A DNA stretch of 31,495 bases from a virus (lineage: Duplodnaviria; Heunggongvirae; Uroviricota; Caudoviricetes): the IMG/VR virus record IMGVR_UViG_2778261428_000002; one strand, given 5' to 3'. The notes under the pieces are model-generated. The model saw nothing but the letters and a program-made list of their open reading frames with translations, had not been told where the DNA came from and made no database searches. The translations under genes and the position numbers were made by a program. Shown here one piece after another: positions 5,125 through 25,977 of this stretch. The stretch's first letter is position 1. Every line of letters starts with the position of its first letter.

Positions 5125-5460
5125 ATGAAAGAATTTGGCATCCGTTTGAAGGAAGAACGTATCCGACTTGGACTTGATCAAGACGGCTTTGGACAACTTG
5201 GGGGCGTGAAGAAAAACGCACAAAGCAACTATGAGAATGGGTTGCGCAAGCCGGACAGTGACTATCTTGCTGGCATAGCGGCAGCGGGAGTTGATGTTCT
5301 GTATGTTCTAACAGGCAACCGCACGCCTGTGGTTACGTTGTCCAATAAAGAGAGTGTGTTGGTGGAAAACTATCGTTCTGCTACGCCAGAACACCAGTCC
5401 ACCCTTGACACGGTTAGCGCTGCGCTTGCGCAACCGATGAATTGTCGAAAAGTACAATGA
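5125..5460 (+). CDS. XRE-family helix-turn-helix repressor (prophage C/CI-like, or cassette regulator)
   Basis: 111 aa. N-terminal HTH_XRE pattern (IRLKEERIRLGLDQDGFGQLGGVKKNAQSNYENGLRKPDSDYLAGIAAAGVDVLYVLTG). Divergent from the early operon. Confidence 0.75.
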   Translation: MKEFGIRLKEERIRLGLDQDGFGQLGGVKKNAQSNYENGLRKPDSDYLAGIAAAGVDVLYVLTGNRTPVVTLSNKESVLVENYRSATPEHQSTLDTVSAALAQPMNCRKVQ

Positions 5461-5491
5461 TTTATTAATTTCAGCTTATTAGGGAGTAATT

Positions 5492-6580
5492 ATGGCAAAT
5501 GTCGGCTTTTCTTTTGAGGGGGTGATGATTGAAAGAATTATTGCTCATCGAATCTTCCCAAGGTCTCCCGATAAGCAAATGGTTCCACCTAAGTTAAGTA
5601 ATCAGTTAATAACGTTAGAACAAGATGCTTTGGATGCACTACAGGTTCGTATAACAGAAGCCTTAGGTAATAAATCTCATGGCATTGAAATGTCTATCAC
5701 TGATACCGGTGATGATAGTTTTTTTGCACTGACAACGTCTGTACTACATGTTGAAGGCGAATCATTTATTAACGTATCTAAGCGATTGGCGCATAAGTTA
5801 ACAGAAGCTCAATATAGTGCGGGGAAGGTTTCCGGTGGTGTGTTAGTAATCATTACGGGAAAAATTGGTGAACAAGCCTGCCCATTCTTTGCTGTACTGC
5901 GTGCTGAAATGCAAAACGGATTTCGGACCAATGATACCCCAGAGAAAATAGCGATGGAGTATATTGCTGACTTATTACTTACACCAACTCAGCGGCTTTA
6001 TAAAATAGGAGTGTTGATTGAGTGTGAGTCAGGCCATGAATTGATTGATGGTCGTTGTGATACGCAATATTATCGTTCATTTTTATTTGATCACTTGATG
6101 ACATCGACGGAAACTAAAAATGCTGCGGGGTATTTTTACAGTGTTTTTCTTGGAATGGGGATCGAAAAATCCTCCAAGAAATTGACGCAGGATTTTTTTG
6201 AACATACTCGAAATTTCATTAATCAGGCTCCAGTTGATGAAGAAACTAAGTTTGATTTACACGAGTCATTACGTTCTGAACTGAGAAGTCAGAAAGCAAC
6301 TTTGAGTACCGCTTCGTTTGCTACGGAACATCTTCCTCAAGAATTACAGACGAGCTATCAGTCATTTATGGCTCAAAAAGGTTTTCCGCAGAATGCAGTG
6401 TCTAAAGATACTGATTATATTAAGAAAAAGCTTCGTCGTAGAAGTAAATTAGTGTTTACAAGCGATGTATGGATATCCATACCACCAGATCAAGTAAAAG
6501 AACTGGTACAGATTGAACAAACAGATGATGATGAGTCAACTACACTTAAAGTCAAAGGGCGGTTGAAAAGTCAAGAATGA
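5492..6580 (+). CDS. Hypothetical 362-aa protein, partner of the RSH-domain protein; function unknown
   Basis: AGGGAG RBS 8 nt upstream. AT-rich relative to the phage backbone. Stop overlaps the next start (ATGA). No catalytic motif recognised. A weak, memory-based resemblance to NA37/YejK nucleoid-associated proteins is unverified. Confidence 0.7.
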   Translation: MANVGFSFEGVMIERIIAHRIFPRSPDKQMVPPKLSNQLITLEQDALDALQVRITEALGNKSHGIEMSITDTGDDSFFALTTSVLHVEGESFINVSKRLAHKLTEAQYSAGKVSGGVLVIITGKIGEQACPFFAVLRAEMQNGFRTNDTPEKIAMEYIADLLLTPTQRLYKIGVLIECESGHELIDGRCDTQYYRSFLFDHLMTSTETKNAAGYFYSVFLGMGIEKSSKKLTQDFFEHTRNFINQAPVDEETKFDLHESLRSELRSQKATLSTASFATEHLPQELQTSYQSFMAQKGFPQNAVSKDTDYIKKKLRRRSKLVFTSDVWISIPPDQVKELVQIEQTDDDESTTLKVKGRLKSQE

Positions 6581-7578
6581 TGAGTATAGAGGATTTTAGA
6601 CGTTATCTGGTTGAAAACCATGCTGCTTATGAAGCATGGGGTAAACATATTGCGTCTGAAATCAATGCGGCTTTGATTGAACAACTTGGTGAAGGGGCCG
6701 CCCAGCTCTTCATCAAGGTACCACCCACTCCGAGAGTTAAAGGTATCGAGTCCGCATTAGGGAAGGTTGGTCGTAAAGGTTATAACAACCCTGTTCAGCA
6801 GATGACGGATCTCGTTGGCGTTCGTTTTGTCGTTTTACTTTCTGAAGATATTGAGACAATCTGTAAAATCATTCAGAATAATGAACAATGGATAGCTGTT
6901 GTTTCTAAAGATTATCAGGATGAAATAGAGGTAAACCCTAAACTATTTGATTATCAATCAAAGCATTTTGAAATAAGGCCAAAGATAAATAGCGTTATAT
7001 CGGGAGTTAATATTACAACTGATATGTGCTGTGAAGTACAAATTAGAACATTATTGCAGCATGCGTATGCAGAATTAGTTCATGATAGCGTTTATAAACC
7101 TGTTGGCCCAGTACCGAAAAAAGCGGAGCGCCAAATTGCGCGTAGTATGGCTTTGATGGAAACAACAGATGAATTATTTTGTAATACAATGCGGCTTTTA
7201 TGTGATACTAATAAACCAAGAAATGATTTTTTAAAGGAGTTAAAAGATTTTTATATAAATAAAATTGGGAGACAGTATTTAAATCAGGAAGATAAAATAA
7301 ATTATTGTTTTTTAGATGAGTATAGGTCGTTTATACAAGAAGATCTTTTGACTAATCTAATCGACCTTCTTGATAAGAAAAAATATATATCATATAAAAT
7401 CCAACAAAGGGCTACTGCCAATCTTTTTTTTGCGCAGCCAGTGGTCATTTTTACTTACTGGCTGGCAATAAATGAAGACAGTAATAAATTACAGCAAGAA
7501 TGGCCGTTACCTGGATATTTGAACGAATTGAGAATGATTTTAAGTGATGTTGGTGTAAGTAGCGGTATTGGATATTAA
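6577..7578 (+). CDS. RelA/SpoT-homologue (RSH) nucleotidyltransferase-domain protein, small alarmone synthetase / toxSAS-like
   Basis: 333 aa. Synthetase motifs in order: PRVKGIESALGKVGRKG, MTDLVGVRFVV (DxxGxR), DYQ...FDYQSKHFEI, CCEVQIRTLLQHAYAELVH (ExQxRT...H.aE). C-terminal ~140 aa is Lys-rich and very AT-rich. Stop converges on gene D with a 4-bp overlap. Confidence 0.75.
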   Translation: MMSIEDFRRYLVENHAAYEAWGKHIASEINAALIEQLGEGAAQLFIKVPPTPRVKGIESALGKVGRKGYNNPVQQMTDLVGVRFVVLLSEDIETICKIIQNNEQWIAVVSKDYQDEIEVNPKLFDYQSKHFEIRPKINSVISGVNITTDMCCEVQIRTLLQHAYAELVHDSVYKPVGPVPKKAERQIARSMALMETTDELFCNTMRLLCDTNKPRNDFLKELKDFYINKIGRQYLNQEDKINYCFLDEYRSFIQEDLLTNLIDLLDKKKYISYKIQQRATANLFFAQPVVIFTYWLAINEDSNKLQQEWPLPGYLNELRMILSDVGVSSGIGY

Positions 7579-14208: not shown

Positions 14209-14967
14209 TTAATTCAGGATAATCAGTTCTGATGTAGCGCTGGCTGGCTTTCCGCCTACGGTATAGCGAATCCCTACCGTTGAGAATGTCAGGCCGTGGA
14301 AGATATCGCGCATTTCCGGGATGTCGTTAACCGAGATAATCATCCGGCCCTGCATGGTGCGCGCCAGCTCTGCCATACGCTGGTACTGCTCAAGGCCAAA
14401 CGGTACGCCGTAGCCTTCGGTTTTCCAGTATGGCGGGTCGCAGTAGAACAGGGTATGCGGGCGGTCATAGCGGCGAATACAGTCGGCCCAGTCCAGATTT
14501 TCAATACAGACGCGCGCCAGCCGCAGATGGGCGGCGGATAAATCTTCCTCCATACGCAGCAGGTTCAGGCGTGGCGGTGAGGTGGTGGCGGTACCGAACG
14601 TGCGGCTTTCCACCTTGCCGCCGAACGCCAGCTTTTGCAGATAGTAGAAGCGCGCCGCGCGCTGGATGTCGGTCAGCGTTTCTTCCGGGGTGATCTGGAG
14701 CCAGCGGTACATTTCGCGGCTGACCAGCGACCATTTAAACTGGCGGACAAACTCTTCTAAATGGTGCTGGAGTACCCGGTAGAGGTTGGTAACGTCACCG
14801 TTGATATCATTCAGCACCTCGGCCTGAGCGGGGCGTTTCATAAAGAACAGCGCCGCCGCTCCGCAAAATGGCTCGACGTAACAGCGGTGTTCAGGAAACA
14901 GCGGCAGGATGTGTTTCGCCAGTCGGCGTTTGCCGCCGATCCACGGAATAACGGGTAACGTATTCAT
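14209..14967 (-). CDS. dam: DNA adenine methyltransferase (Dam-like, N6-adenine)
   Basis: 252 aa. SAM-binding FCGAAALFF and catalytic DPPY (YCDPPYWKTEGY). Sits between tail-fibre genes and FI. Confidence 0.85.
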   Translation of the reverse strand: MNTLPVIPWIGGKRRLAKHILPLFPEHRCYVEPFCGAAALFFMKRPAQAEVLNDINGDVTNLYRVLQHHLEEFVRQFKWSLVSREMYRWLQITPEETLTDIQRAARFYYLQKLAFGGKVESRTFGTATTSPPRLNLLRMEEDLSAAHLRLARVCIENLDWADCIRRYDRPHTLFYCDPPYWKTEGYGVPFGLEQYQRMAELARTMQGRMIISVNDIPEMRDIFHGLTFSTVGIRYTVGGKPASATSELIILN

Positions 14968-20165: not shown

Positions 20166-20621
20166 TTAAATCCAGTGGATTTCGGTAACTTCAGGGTTCG
20201 CACAGCCTGTTTTAAGAGACACAAAAACGGCATATTTATAACCCAATTGTTCTTTAAACGCCTGCAGCTTGAGGAGGTCTTTTTCTCTGCCATTTCTTTG
20301 GTTGTTGGTCGATTTTTTCAGTTCGAACGCAATCAGGTTTTCATCGGTTCCTCGGTGGTGAACGATAATATCCGGGATAACATCACGTTCGCTTGCATTT
20401 CCGTTAGGTTCAACTGCGTAAATTAATCTTTTAACTGCATCCCCATTTCTATTGTATTCACAGTCTACATCCCATTCCGGGAAGTTATTTTCCAGATATC
20501 TACCCAAGCGGTTGGCGATAGCCCGTTCACTATTATCTGTAATCAGCAAATGAGCATCGTTACGCAAAAGTTCATTGATAGCGGCTCGCGTTGATTCTTC
20601 AACAGTATGTTGATTAGGCAT
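20166..20621 (-). CDS. Moron: hypothetical 151-aa protein with possible PD-(D/E)xK nuclease-like motif
   Basis: AT-rich ORF between S and V (P2 orf30 position). AAGGA RBS. Residues VIPDIIVHH...IAFELKK give a D-x19-ExK pattern. Confidence 0.65.
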   Translation of the reverse strand: MPNQHTVEESTRAAINELLRNDAHLLITDNSERAIANRLGRYLENNFPEWDVDCEYNRNGDAVKRLIYAVEPNGNASERDVIPDIIVHHRGTDENLIAFELKKSTNNQRNGREKDLLKLQAFKEQLGYKYAVFVSLKTGCANPEVTEIHWI

Positions 20622-22992: not shown

Positions 22993-23378
22993 TTGCGTCC
23001 CCTTAAAAAGTCGAGCAATTGACCGGGGTTATCCAGTTGTCGGATGGCCCATAGCAGCGCCTTGACGGTCAGCGCCGATGAGAGCAGCGCCCCGATACCA
23101 GGGGAGACTTTTTCCATCAGATGCTGCGGCAGATATCCGGCGACCAGCGCGGTGAACAGGTCGGCGGTCAGCAGGCCGATCACAAACGCCACGCAGAAGA
23201 AAATGATGCGCAGGAACAGGCCGATCTCTTTTTGCGAAATCACCAGCAGCAGCGCGCCACACAATGCGCCTAGCACTACCGGAGCCTGTAGCGTCGGGAA
23301 CAGCGTGGCAATGGAGAATGCGCTTACGGAAGCGGCAACGACGGTGCCGGTTACGGGTTCGTTCATAGTCAGTCCCAC
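22989..23378 (-). CDS. Holin (gpY-like)
   Basis: 129 aa hydrophobic membrane protein immediately downstream of X. Confidence 0.65.
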   Translation of the reverse strand: MGLTMNEPVTGTVVAASVSAFSIATLFPTLQAPVVLGALCGALLLVISQKEIGLFLRIIFFCVAFVIGLLTADLFTALVAGYLPQHLMEKVSPGIGALLSSALTVKALLWAIRQLDNPGQLLDFLRGRK

Positions 23379-23572
23379 AGGTTGATTCGTTGACGCGTGG
23401 CGGCGGAAGCCTGTTCAGGTACGTTCACCGCCGTACCGTGCGGCAGGCGCAGCGGCAGTTCGCACAGGCGCGGGTTGTCGCGGTAAAGCCGTTCGACAAT
23501 CCCGGCAGTGCGCCCGAAGGTGCGCCAGCAGATCTGGTCGAGCGTTTCGTTTTGCAGGCTATAGACGATCAT
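23369..23572 (-). CDS. X: Tail protein X (gpX-like)
   Basis: Start moved to ATG MIVYSLQNETLDQICWRTFG, giving 67 aa. Resembles P2 gpX as I recall it. Confidence 0.8.
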   Translation of the reverse strand: MIVYSLQNETLDQICWRTFGRTAGIVERLYRDNPRLCELPLRLPHGTAVNVPEQASAATRQRINLWD

Positions 23573-23685: not shown

Positions 23686-24006
23686 TTATGCCTCGCCGGT
23701 GTCGGTGTTGATGATTTGCCGTTCTGCGGACTTCTGGATTTGGATCAGCGCCGGGATCAGCAGTGCACTGGCTAGCAGGCCGTGTCCTAACTGGCACAGG
23801 CTTTCCGGTGAGAACTCCAATACGTTGCTGTCGGCGAAGGATACGAAGGTTTTACCCAGAAAGTGCAGGCCGTGGCACAATCCGGCGCAGCACTCCTCGC
23901 TGCTGTTGGCCAGTTGCAGGGTGTCGTCTGCGTTGAGATTCGAAATATCCAGCTTGCGGATCACATCGGCCAGTTCGGAAGAAAGCAGGTTGGTTTCAGG
24001 CACCAT
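23686..24006 (-). CDS. Hypothetical 106-aa protein, second gene of a coupled pair
   Basis: ATG at 24006 with GGAGGTG RBS. Start overlaps the upstream gene's stop by 11 nt. Contains a Cys-rich stretch (EECCAGLCHGLH). Confidence 0.5.
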   Translation of the reverse strand: MVPETNLLSSELADVIRKLDISNLNADDTLQLANSSEECCAGLCHGLHFLGKTFVSFADSNVLEFSPESLCQLGHGLLASALLIPALIQIQKSAERQIINTDTGEA

Positions 24007-24202
24007 GGCGCACCTCCAGCGGCTTGCAGGAGACAAATACCAGCGGGAAACCCGCCAGCAGGTCGCGAGCCTCGATCTCTGTTGTTGCCAGTACGGACAC
24101 CAGACGCAATGGCTGGATCTCGCGCAGCAGGCGGTTGGAACGGGCGTTCAGGAAGGTGTAGAGCTTTGAATGTGCGCGTATGTTACTATTAGCGGTAGCC
24201 AT
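23996..24202 (-). CDS. Hypothetical 68-aa protein, first gene of a coupled pair
   Basis: ATG at 24202 with GAGG RBS. Divergent from the RHH/Doc operon. Confidence 0.5.
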   Translation of the reverse strand: MATANSNIRAHSKLYTFLNARSNRLLREIQPLRLVSVLATTEIEARDLLAGFPLVFVSCKPLEVRHGA

Positions 24203-24273
24203 AGCATTAGCCTCAATAATGTTGTGGTCAGAGGCCCGTTGGTGTTGGTAGCACCTGCGGGCTTCGTTGTTTT

Positions 24274-24293
24274 TGTATGACTGTTGTCATACA
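24274..24293. promoter_or_regulatory. Perfect 8-bp inverted repeat (TGTATGAC-tgtt-GTCATACA), candidate operator in a divergent promoter region
   Basis: Lies in the 134-bp gap between the 68-aa gene and the RHH gene. Followed by a possible sigma70 promoter TTGCTT-17-TATAGC. Confidence 0.5.
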
Positions 24294-24336
24294 CTTGCTT
24301 TACTAACTGTAGGAAAATATAGCAGGAGTATAGCAA

Positions 24337-24516
24337 GTGTCAACCATTTCTATTCAAGGCAAAGGCAGTAAGCAAATCGCGTTACGAGTAGATCCTGCTC
24401 TTGAGGCCGGAATTCAGCAGGCACTTAAAGCTGATGGTGATGCCTCTGTTTCCGCGTGGATTAAGCGAATTATCAGGAAAGAGCTTCAGTCACGAGGCAT
24501 TGAAACAAAAGATTAG
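24337..24516 (+). CDS. Ribbon-helix-helix (Arc/CopG-like) DNA-binding protein, GTG start
   Basis: 59 aa, not in the ORF track because it starts with GTG. AGGAG RBS 7 nt upstream. KQIALRVDPALEAGIQQALKADG...WIKRIIRKEL fits a strand-helix-helix pattern. Confidence 0.6.
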   Translation: MSTISIQGKGSKQIALRVDPALEAGIQQALKADGDASVSAWIKRIIRKELQSRGIETKD

Positions 24517-24562
24517 CAGATAGGTATATACTTTTAATAAAGAGTATTAGAGGTAAAAAATA

Positions 24563-24751
24563 ATGGCGAAGAATAGCAGTCCTGCCAGCCGATACGGTAT
24601 CAAGGTCGTAAAAAGAGACAGTATGAGTGGGCAGTTCGTACCCGTCGAAATGAAACTGGACGGCCCGGAAGGTGAGCGTGTGATTAAAAAGTCGGCAGAA
24701 CGTATTTATGCCAGACACAACAAAGTCATTAAGGCGCTGGCTAACCGATGA
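24563..24751 (+). CDS. Putative antitoxin partner of Doc (family not recognised)
   Basis: 62 aa with GAGGT RBS. Stop overlaps the doc start (ATGA). Confidence 0.55.
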   Translation: MAKNSSPASRYGIKVVKRDSMSGQFVPVEMKLDGPEGERVIKKSAERIYARHNKVIKALANR

Positions 24752-25125
24752 TTGATGCACATTTGGTGATTGGAATTCACGATTTTATTCTTGCTCATGA
24801 GCCGGGATTGGTTGGTTATCAGGATGCTGGCCGGGTCGAGGCAACACTGGCGCGGGTGGATAACCGTATTCTGTATGAGCAGATGAATGATATTTTCCAG
24901 ATCGCCGCATCTTATGCGGTTGCCATCGCCAGAGGGCACGTTTTTGCTGATGCCAACAAGCGAACGGCACTGGTGACGGCGTTGACATACCTTGATATGC
25001 AGGGTGTGAACCTCAAGCGAACACAAAAGCTGGAAGATATTATGGTGGATGTGGCTGAGGGAACGCTGAATCTGGATGATTTAGCCGATATTTTCTATAC
25101 CCTTAGTGATGTAAATGCTTCCTGA
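24748..25125 (+). CDS. doc: Doc (death-on-curing) / Fic-family toxin
   Basis: 125 aa. Fic/Doc active-site motif HVFADANKRT (HxFx(D/N)(A/G)NKR). Confidence 0.85.
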   Translation: MIDAHLVIGIHDFILAHEPGLVGYQDAGRVEATLARVDNRILYEQMNDIFQIAASYAVAIARGHVFADANKRTALVTALTYLDMQGVNLKRTQKLEDIMVDVAEGTLNLDDLADIFYTLSDVNAS

Positions 25126-25130
25126 CGTTA

Positions 25131-25155
25131 CAGCCCGACAGATCGGGCTGTTTTT
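25131..25155. terminator. Rho-independent terminator hairpin after doc
   Basis: CAGCCCGA-caga-TCGGGCTG followed by TTTTT. Lies between the convergent doc and 91-aa gene stops. Confidence 0.7.
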
Positions 25156-25157
25156 AA

Positions 25158-25509: not shown

Positions 25510-25977
25510 TTATACCAGAACAAACGTACTGCGCGGCTTGCCCAGAATATCCCGCACGGCGAAGCGGGCATCGCGCGCCAGATCGTCAGCGATGCTTTCC
25601 TTCTGTTCCGCCAGTTTGCTGCCGTGGGTGGTGGCATCAAAGTTACGATAGTGTTCCAACAGGTTCGCGTGCGTCAGGCTGTACACCGCGCGGCGGTAGC
25701 GGTGCTGGTTAACGCTTTCGCCGTCCAGCCGTTCGGTCGTGGTTTCCGCAATGTAAGTTGTGCCACGGTTTTCCTGTTCCAGCCGCCATTCCCGCAGGTC
25801 GTCGTTTACGCTGGCCAGCGCAATCAGCAGTGCCTCGCGCAGACGTTCGTTGGTAATGGTGCTGTCCAGCCGTTGGGTTGCACGCAGATGTTGCGTATCA
25901 ATATCGGGAAAGAAAGGGTGGTTGCTGATAACCAACCCCGGCAGACTGGCGGCGGGGGCAACCTGAATAAAGCTCAT
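25510..25977 (-). CDS. L: Head completion/stabilisation protein L (gpL-like)
   Basis: Start moved to ATG MSFIQVAPAASLPG (GGGAGA RBS). Conserved order after M. Confidence 0.8.
   Translation of the reverse strand: MSFIQVAPAASLPGLVISNHPFFPDIDTQHLRATQRLDSTITNERLREALLIALASVNDDLREWRLEQENRGTTYIAETTTERLDGESVNQHRYRRAVYSLTHANLLEHYRNFDATTHGSKLAEQKESIADDLARDARFAVRDILGKPRSTFVLV

Follow-up and report, generated by a model that had tools for sequence, protein, structure and literature searches.

The stretch of DNA analysed here (the window) comprises the 31,495 nucleotides (nt) of the IMG/VR virus record IMGVR_UViG_2778261428_000002 and represents a P2-like prophage of Enterobacterales. At positions 24337-25125 it harbors three co-oriented genes on the plus strand, which encode a small regulator-like protein of 59 amino acids (aa; ORF-A), a predicted minimal antitoxin of 62 aa (ORF-B) and a Doc-family toxin of 125 aa. 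The phd-doc modules of P1 and Salmonella are toxin-antitoxin (TA) systems of type II, in which Doc is an EF-Tu kinase with a Fic fold and Phd an antitoxin with a YefM fold and a C-terminal neutralising helix. All three genes of the window are real genes under strong purifying selection, with ratios of non-synonymous to synonymous substitution rates (dN/dS) of 0.00-0.15 against the copies in Serratia and Edwardsiella.

Genes and features of the locus

The block containing the three genes is flanked by the tail gene gpX (23369-23572) and the head completion gene gpL (25510-25977). E. coli GMF054 is 100% identical over 1.9 kb around the cassette. In this genome, the Prokaryotic Genome Annotation Pipeline (PGAP) lists tail protein X, two minus-strand hypothetical genes, the plus-strand trio annotated as "phage protein" (59 aa), hypothetical protein (62 aa) and death-on-curing family toxin, one further minus-strand hypothetical gene, and then gpL. 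The G+C content amounts to 42-46% over positions 24200-24800 as opposed to 57-62% in the flanking late genes, and this drop marks the block as an insertion (moron). The position between L and X and the low G+C content relative to the flanks thus bear out the preliminary description of this DNA, which had placed an inserted module in the late region. Most of the stretch is present in just two of 5,426 complete E. coli genomes, and no record matching the stretch around the cassette was found in the phage collection searched.

The doc gene (24748-25125, plus strand) encodes a member of the Doc family, a predicted Fic-fold kinase. The protein exceeds the cut-offs of TIGR01550 (3.7e-25, 88.5 bits, cut-off 38.65) and of the Pfam family Fic, PF02661 (2.6e-10, 41.5 bits, cut-off 24), matches the P1 Doc structure 3K33 at E=1.5e-25 and is about 42% identical to P1 Doc. 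The active-site motif of Doc-type proteins is HxFx(D/N)(A/G)NKR. It is intact here as H64-VFADANKR-72 (24937-24963), within the stretch HVFADANKRT encoded at 24937-24966, and an alignment that contains P1 Doc shows no variation at its residues H, F, D, N, K and R. The dN/dS of the gene is 0.02-0.04. The Doc motif pointed out in the preliminary description is confirmed. The doc transcript would end at a terminator-like hairpin followed by a T-run (ACAGCCCGACAGATCGGGCTGT TTTTAA; 25130-25157, plus strand, hairpin at 25130-25151), which has nine pairs, six of them GC. PADLOC does not list this TA pair as a defence system and gives for Doc no more than a weak match to PDC-M59B.

ORF-B (24563-24751, plus strand), the predicted product of which ends in ...RIYARHNKVIKALANR, is preceded by an AGAGG Shine-Dalgarno sequence and overlaps the start of doc by ATGA at 24748-24751. 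Its dN/dS is 0.06.

ORF-B represents a family of Doc partners

Searches with ORF-B as a single sequence gave three close clusters and no more, and no match to the phage collection at DNA or protein level. Pfam, NCBIfam and the PDB sequences contained no match either, and the sole library match was a PHROG of unknown function. An exhaustive HMMER search extended the family to eight clusters at 50% identity and a profile search to at least 161 clusters, mostly from Betaproteobacteria, all of which are named "hypothetical" and lack a Pfam domain. Searching the PDB sequences with the family profile, and Pfam with each of the members, yielded nothing meaningful. The N-terminus of the family is variable, and its last 38 or so residues are conserved as PVxMxLxGxEGxRVVxxAAKRVIxxHxxVIKALA(K/N)R.

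In about 30 lineages the ORF-B family gene lies directly upstream of doc, mostly with an overlap of 4 nt. These contexts include a Robbsia plasmid, chromosomes of Undibacterium, Herbaspirillum and Chitinimonas, Stanholtvirus phages of Burkholderia, a P2-like tail region from a metagenome, and IMG/VR and JGI contigs; the metagenome scan was performed with a subset of the 59-sequence family alignment. Exceptions are L015, L165, L168, L175 and L011, in which doc is visibly degraded or lost. This conserved pairing argues that ORF-B is the cognate antitoxin of Doc.

The C-terminal tail of ORF-B resembles that of Phd

PF02604, the N-terminal domain of Phd and YefM, was found neither in ORF-B nor in any of the 59 family members. 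No BLASTP alignment was obtained between ORF-B and P1 Phd, which scores -1.3 bits with the hidden Markov model of ORF-B. A profile-profile comparison by hhalign with Doc-partnered Phd proteins gave a probability of 82% and E=1e-5, placing residues 47-62 of ORF-B on residues 58-73 of Phd and aligning nothing upstream.

The tail was also compared statistically. From 56 members of the ORF-B family, the terminal 22 residues were placed on Phd tails in ungapped, C-anchored alignments and scored against 20,000 shuffles. With residues 52-73 of Salmonella Phd the comparison gave z=3.9, a score reached by 3 of the 20,000 shuffles; with the same residues of P1 Phd it gave z=3.0 (53 and 58 of 20,000 in two runs). 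Higher values (z=4.2-5.5; 0-3 of 20,000) resulted for PGAP-annotated Phd/YefM proteins of plasmids from Pantoea, Cedecea, Rahnella and E. coli, three of which have an annotated Doc gene directly downstream (the one from Cedecea does not), and for the IMG/VR protein L103. The latter joins an N-terminal PF02604 domain (E=1e-6, just below the cut-off) to a tail of the ORF-B type. Among the registers, the C-anchored one alone gives a positive score. The motif can be read by eye from the endings ...FADIMGRHSRTVKALADR of the Pantoea Phd and ...SAERIYARHNKVIKALANR of ORF-B.

Neutralisation of Doc has been mapped to Phd residues 52-73, with F56, I59, M60, H63, L67 and L70 as hot spots in Salmonella Phd (PMC9207808). 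Five of these, I59, M60, H63, L67 and L70, align with V/I48, I/Y49, H52, I56 and L59 of the ORF-B family. The Phd segment, termed "Phd-C", is a portable Doc-neutralising element that works even as a SUMO fusion (PMC10440598). ORF-B is therefore best described, judging from its sequence, as a minimal antitoxin of a "Phd-C-only" type. The preliminary description had considered the 62-aa protein not to be a canonical Phd. This holds with regard to the PF02604 domain, which is absent, and does not hold for the C-terminal 16-22 residues, which share the Doc-neutralising motif of Phd; the hhalign match is likewise one to the Phd tail (E=1e-5) and not to a standard Phd/YefM protein.

In a single-sequence AlphaFold2 model of ORF-B (predicted local distance difference test score 80), residues 11-32 form a beta-hairpin and residues 34-60 a long helix. 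The idea that the hairpin is a remnant of the Phd strands beta2-beta3 was rejected, since hhalign aligns the tail alone. No DNA-binding family was matched by ORF-B in Pfam, NCBIfam, PHROGs or PDB, where the missing match is not proof of absence.

ORF-A belongs to a divergent control block

ORF-A (24337-24516, plus strand) starts with GTG and has an AGGAG sequence 8 nt upstream. It differs from the Serratia copy by 11 synonymous and no non-synonymous changes, which shows that it is translated. It is probably a ribbon-helix-helix (RHH) protein, although the profile matches behind this label are all weak: NF041551 (YlcI/YnfO) was matched at 4e-4 with 20.4 bits, below the cut-off of 30, and phrog_228 (Arc-like) at 6e-4. 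YlcI/YnfO is also weakly matched by 31 of 44 ORF-A relatives (best 7e-5), and the ORF-A variant of strain 24A16 carries this name in the PGAP annotation. The AlphaFold2 model shows two helices (20-33 and 38-52), and hhalign against Arc was not significant, leaving the RHH fold without structural confirmation. Thus, of the "GTG-initiated RHH gene with its own ribosome-binding site" described previously, the conserved gene and its AGGAG sequence stand and the fold is unconfirmed. The literature searched for a function of YlcI/YnfO contained nothing relevant.

The distribution of ORF-A was surveyed with one genome per species. Relatives with 43-93% identity occur at 44 species loci, and ORF-B and doc accompany them at one of these, in Edwardsiella, which carries the same prophage. 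The protein identical to that of the window is always found with ORF-B and doc alongside, again in that prophage. Elsewhere two settings recur. In the first, ORF-A lies in P4-like satellites or satellites resembling phage-inducible chromosomal islands (PICI), with integrase, AlpA and a D5_N-type primase, and is divergent from the primase-bound operon. In the second, it is found beside divergent homologues of two minus-strand genes of the window: a 68-aa Icd-like gene (23996-24202; NF033153 at 2.8e-5, just below the cut-off, and phrog_20855 at 1.5e-45) and, downstream of it, a 106-aa gene (23686-24006; phrog_19484 at 3.6e-53), homologues of which were found by tblastn to accompany ORF-A relatives in other genomes. 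Homology between the loci ends at the ORF-A stop codon.

Between ORF-A and the 68-aa gene lies a perfect palindrome with 8-bp arms and an asymmetric centre of 4 nt, TGTATGAC-tgtt-GTCATACA (24274-24293), a candidate operator of ORF-A. No other copy occurs in the window, where chance would yield 0.03 matches with three or fewer mismatches. In Edwardsiella the palindrome is retained with a sole change in the spacer. The right arm continues into ACACTTG (24291-24297), a heptamer kept upstream of ORF-A genes of one N-terminal type. Of the 25 loci with this type, "KQIA(L/F)RV", 18 have ACACTTG upstream and none the repeat ATGTGT-N2-4-ACACAT, whereas the 20 loci of the "PPFQFRL" type show the latter repeat in 16 cases and ACACTTG in none. 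Such co-variation fits a sequence-specific DNA-binding protein with its operator in the divergent region. The leftward operon would be served by a strong sigma-70-like promoter on the minus strand (TTGACA-16-TGnTATATT, 24316-24343; 11/12), directed toward the Icd-like gene and overlapping the ORF-A start codon with its -35 element; the minus-strand TTGACA at this position is kept across loci. The palindrome is located between this promoter-like site and the 68-aa gene and falls within the leftward operon's leader.

A second inverted repeat, ACACTTGCT...AGCAAGTGT (24291-24304 and 24327-24340), has 14-nt arms with 93% complementarity, flanks the leftward -10 region and spans the ribosome-binding site and GTG of ORF-A. 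In Phytobacter (L036) and Kosakonia (L038, L041) its half-sites form a tight palindrome, CAAGTGT-cat-ACACTTG.

Further to the left, outside the TA genes, two conserved hairpins with a T-run (24197-24272, plus strand) lie antisense to the Shine-Dalgarno sequence and ATG of the 68-aa gene. The region folds with a minimum free energy of -39.3 kcal/mol (z=-5.4), both stems are kept, and compensatory changes are seen at nine of the 18 pairs over 28 loci. On the opposite strand many of the G-U pairs would turn into mismatches, which favours the plus strand. Against Rfam it gave 33.8 bits with SymR (RF01809), below the gathering threshold of 61. These features suggest a small cis-antisense RNA that carries its own terminator. 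An assignment to the C4/CI type was discarded, as no Rfam match reached the gathering threshold and only the SymR match appeared below it. The literature searched on antisense RNAs with Icd-like genes in satellites held nothing relevant, and a description of the control block was not found in it.

The same architecture, in which ORF-A faces operator repeats, antisense hairpins and a leftward Icd-like or 89-aa gene followed by the primase, is found in L029-L078. Its hosts are P4/PICI-like satellites (integrase, AlpA and D5_N primase) of many Enterobacterales and Pasteurellaceae, and positions 23686-24516 of the window, with ORF-A and the 68-aa and 106-aa genes, constitute a fragment of such a satellite block within the P2-like prophage.

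Together, the distribution of ORF-A and its co-variation with the divergent region argue that it is part of the control block and not of the TA system. This bears on a first rival explanation, a dedicated three-component TA system in which ORF-A would regulate the operon through the palindrome and replace the DNA-binding domain missing from ORF-B, in the manner of omega-epsilon-zeta. It is consistent with the conserved, non-random palindrome, with the lack of a detectable DNA-binding domain in ORF-B, with the common strand of ORF-A and ORF-B and their gap of 46 nt, which contains no terminator, and with the presence of an ORF-A variant upstream of every Enterobacterales copy of this ORF-B-doc cassette. 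However, doc and ORF-B are missing at 43 of the 44 ORF-A loci, most of which lie in P4/PICI-like satellites opposite an operon of the primase or Icd-like kind, and an ORF-A variant also precedes relB-yafQ, a pair with its own DNA-binding antitoxin. Moreover, three "specificity" variants of ORF-A occur before the same TA cassette, with a recombination junction inside ORF-A: in strain 24A16, the leftward genes, the operator/intergenic region and the 5' half of ORF-A have been swapped together, and about 99% identity is kept in the TA genes, in the spacer and in the 3' half of ORF-A. The perfect palindromic operator candidate noted previously is real. It is, however, also part of the leftward leader and, as it sits in a conserved divergent control block, is not assignable to TA autoregulation.

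Other ORF-B-doc loci provide arguments on both sides. Five betaproteobacterial lineages carry a small helix-turn-helix-like gene upstream and one carries an RHH_1-like gene, which would suit a three-component system, but about 24 lineages have no third gene, and among all these loci ORF-A is confined to the enterobacterial prophage lineage. The antitoxin family is thus repeatedly accompanied by trans-acting regulators, which vary by lineage. On balance we regard a dedicated three-component system as unlikely. The preliminary description had considered a three-gene TA arrangement with the RHH gene as a component; in view of the single ORF-A locus among 44 with ORF-B and doc, and of the variant before relB-yafQ, ORF-A does not qualify as a dedicated one.

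The helix-turn-helix-like genes form a family of 66-85 aa (QQEFL..A...L.MTR.EFA.RI....RTLD.WLLP) with a weak match to HTH_3 (E=6e-4) and are located just 5' of ORF-B-doc in L013 (2221-2421), L019 (1740-1952), L170 (978-1235), L176 (789-995) and L183 (8-229). Together with ORF-B-doc they may constitute a genuine three-gene Doc system. In L011 (1651-2665), a P2-like prophage, the L-X site holds an ORF-A variant of 52% identity, then relB-yafQ, and then an orphan 54-aa ORF-B homologue without doc, which appears to be the remnant of a replaced Doc cassette. Two generalizations about ORF-A loci were given up. ORF-A genes elsewhere do not usually possess their own terminator (9 of 47 by a simple hairpin-plus-T criterion), and satellites do not in general offer a slot for co-directional cargo downstream of ORF-A, as mostly minus-strand genes are found there.

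Transcription of the cassette

The spacer between ORF-A and ORF-B (24517-24562, plus strand) is AT-rich and shows no terminator-like site. With a gap of this length and no terminator, the TA genes would most simply be transcribed by read-through from the promoter of ORF-A. Such read-through would amount to de facto control of the TA genes by ORF-A, and a functional three-gene operon of this kind is likely, to judge from the spacing. The spacer holds a weak AU-rich hairpin (24529-24555, plus strand; -8.3 kcal/mol, z=-2.5) that pairs with the Shine-Dalgarno sequence of ORF-B, and the hairpin arms are kept in Serratia and Edwardsiella.

According to a second rival explanation, the TA pair is autonomous and is transcribed from a promoter of its own, located in the spacer or at the 3' end of ORF-A. 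The latter gene would merely be adjacent, and the AT-rich inverted repeat at 24527-24547 would serve as TA operator or as an RNA element tuning translation of ORF-B. The joint movement of ORF-A 3' half, spacer and TA genes in strain 24A16 agrees with it, as do the promoter-like sequence TTGAAA-N19-TATATA at 24500-24530, the inclusion of the Shine-Dalgarno sequence in the spacer hairpin, and the plain two-gene units at many betaproteobacterial loci. Yet the promoter candidate has a spacer of 19 nt and is not conserved in Edwardsiella, the promoter scan of the plus strand found nothing, and neither protein of the pair has a recognisable DNA-binding domain with which to use an operator. An autonomous pair thus appears improbable.

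Proposed mechanism

Our favoured explanation, to which we assign a probability of roughly 0.7, is a two-gene cassette of the phd-doc type with a Phd-C-only antitoxin, behind an ORF-A that originates from a neighbouring control block of the satellite type. Its core would be a type II TA pair like phd-doc, inserted between L and X as a moron of low G+C content. By homology to P1 Doc, the toxin is expected to phosphorylate EF-Tu and to stop translation. ORF-B would have lost, or never had, the dimerisation and DNA-binding N-domain of Phd/YefM, and its helical Phd-C part, which covers about residues 41-62 and in which H52, L59 and A60 do not vary, is predicted to bind the active-site groove of Doc in the manner of Phd 52-73. 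The ATGA overlap would couple translation of ORF-B and doc. Since ORF-B has no recognisable DNA-binding domain, autoregulation in the style of Phd is not expected, and transcription of the TA genes would most likely enter from the upstream ORF-A promoter. The home of ORF-A would be a divergent P4/PICI-like satellite control block in which ORF-A is accompanied by operator repeats, a hairpin RNA in cis-antisense orientation and, to the left, an Icd-like or primase operon, with the TA cassette dropped in behind ORF-A. The biological role may be addiction or abortive infection.

Several points weigh against this explanation. The similarity to Phd-C, from which the mode of neutralisation is deduced, spans only 16-22 residues and was spotted before it was tested, although the C-terminus fixed its register. 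A Foldseek search of the PDB with the ORF-B model returned noise only (best E=0.63) and no structural neighbour. The co-variation of ORF-A types with upstream repeats, from which DNA binding by ORF-A is suggested, could also come from plain linkage. Regarding transcription, the plus-strand scan revealed no convincing sigma-70 site for ORF-A or ORF-B, and the promoter candidate at 24500-24530, weak as it is, lies inside the presumed operon. Finally, the helix-turn-helix-like gene travels with ORF-B-doc in five betaproteobacterial lineages, indicating that dedicated third components exist for this TA family and that a three-gene arrangement stays viable as a general idea.

A more far-reaching version, which we consider doubtful, holds that Phd-C-only antitoxins are a widespread class unable to regulate themselves and repeatedly capturing regulators in trans, and that here a satellite switch controls the release of Doc as an enforcement or abortive-infection device. 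If so, the captured regulator would be the helix-turn-helix-like gene in Betaproteobacteria and, in the window, the RHH-like gene of a bistable satellite switch with an antisense RNA over the Icd-like gene. A flip of the switch or a shut-off of transcription by a phage would then lead to decay of ORF-B, free Doc and a stop of translation.

The main value of the favoured explanation lies in naming the ORF-B family and in drawing attention to the control block with its antisense RNA and Icd-like gene. A family of small proteins, hitherto "hypothetical" throughout, receives a name and a testable mechanism as a partner of Doc in prophages, plasmids and chromosomes. It would be a naturally occurring case of the modular-antitoxin model, where the linear neutralising tail is retained and the DNA-binding domain is dispensable, and it would illustrate that a minimal TA pair can plug in behind a foreign regulator. 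The conserved block of RHH-like gene, operator repeats, antisense hairpin RNA and Icd-like gene is common to P4/PICI-like satellites and some P2-like prophages. For annotation, a caution follows: a small DNA-binding gene beside a TA pair should not be taken for a third component before its distribution has been checked.

Other cargo of the prophage and its relatives

Further TA pairs occur at the L-X site in related prophages. In Serratia symbiotica (L003-L010, 4600-5263) a Gp49/HTH_37 pair (HigB/HigA-like) adjoins doc, and in Yersinia (L033, 2755-4633) the site holds a RelE/MqsA-like pair together with a 192-aa Fic protein and its 149-aa partner with a Phd/YefM domain. Judging by the gene content of these relatives, the L-X site is a TA-rich hotspot.

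Additional cargo was observed elsewhere in the window. A 151-aa gene on the minus strand (20166-20621), situated among tail and baseplate genes, matches PD-Lambda-3_A of PADLOC (E=1.3e-38) and is probably a moron for anti-phage defence. The region 5125-7578 (plus strand), situated between ogr and gene D, contains a helix-turn-helix gene, a gene for an NA37-type nucleoid-associated protein (E=9.5e-15) and one for a 333-aa RelA/SpoT-domain protein (PF04607, 1.7e-18; PADLOC PDC-S33, 1.1e-13). E. coli GMF054 carries other cargo at this spot, namely a hypothetical gene and genes for DUF6037 and a nucleoid-associated protein. The difference marks the spot as a variable hotspot and shows that the window does not derive from this strain. 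In the annotation of the matching E. coli record, a DNA adenine methylase gene (14209-14967, minus strand) is surrounded by genes for tail fibre and sheath.

Comparison with known systems

The TA pair shares with phd-doc of P1 and Salmonella a clear Doc homologue with HxFxDANKR, the order of antitoxin before toxin with a stop/start overlap, the neutralisation motif including its hot spots in the C-terminal 16-22 residues of the antitoxin, and the location on a prophage. Unlike Phd, ORF-B lacks the PF02604 domain, which in Phd provides dimerisation, operator binding and conditional cooperativity. With its 62 aa it has a short predicted beta-hairpin in place of the N-domain, and antitoxin autoregulation is accordingly not expected.

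The closest described case is paaR2-paaA2-parE2 of the cryptic prophage CP-933P in E. coli O157:H7, a TA system with a non-DNA-binding antitoxin behind a CI-like repressor of a prophage switch (PMC8630535). In both cases a small antitoxin without DNA-binding domain and its toxin are co-oriented behind the regulator of a divergent switch of a mobile element. The toxin is ParE there and Doc here. The CI-like helix-turn-helix protein PaaR2 comes from a lambdoid immunity region, whereas ORF-A, a YlcI/YnfO-like protein of 59 aa and probably of the RHH type, stems from a block of the satellite type. For paaR2-paaA2-parE2 the regulation is demonstrated, and for the cassette described here it is predicted.

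With regard to the antitoxin itself, the Doc:PanA_Phd-C pair of Corynebacterium doosanense (NetFlax) is comparable, in which Phd-C on a non-Phd N-terminal part neutralises Doc and a stabilised Phd-C alone is sufficient (PMC10440598). ORF-B likewise joins a Phd-C element to a non-Phd N-terminal part. In PanA this part is the globular Panacea domain; in ORF-B it comprises about 40 residues with no known domain, a variable start and the conserved PVxMxLxGxEGxRVV. Omega-epsilon-zeta and other tripartite type II systems share the idea of a separate RHH regulator upstream of a non-DNA-binding antitoxin, but omega is co-inherited with epsilon-zeta, and ORF-A is not co-inherited with ORF-B-doc (one of 44 species loci). 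Portable Phd-C elements, antitoxins restricted to neutralisation and regulators acting in trans are already in the literature, and the TA system of this prophage is a variant of this known modular logic.

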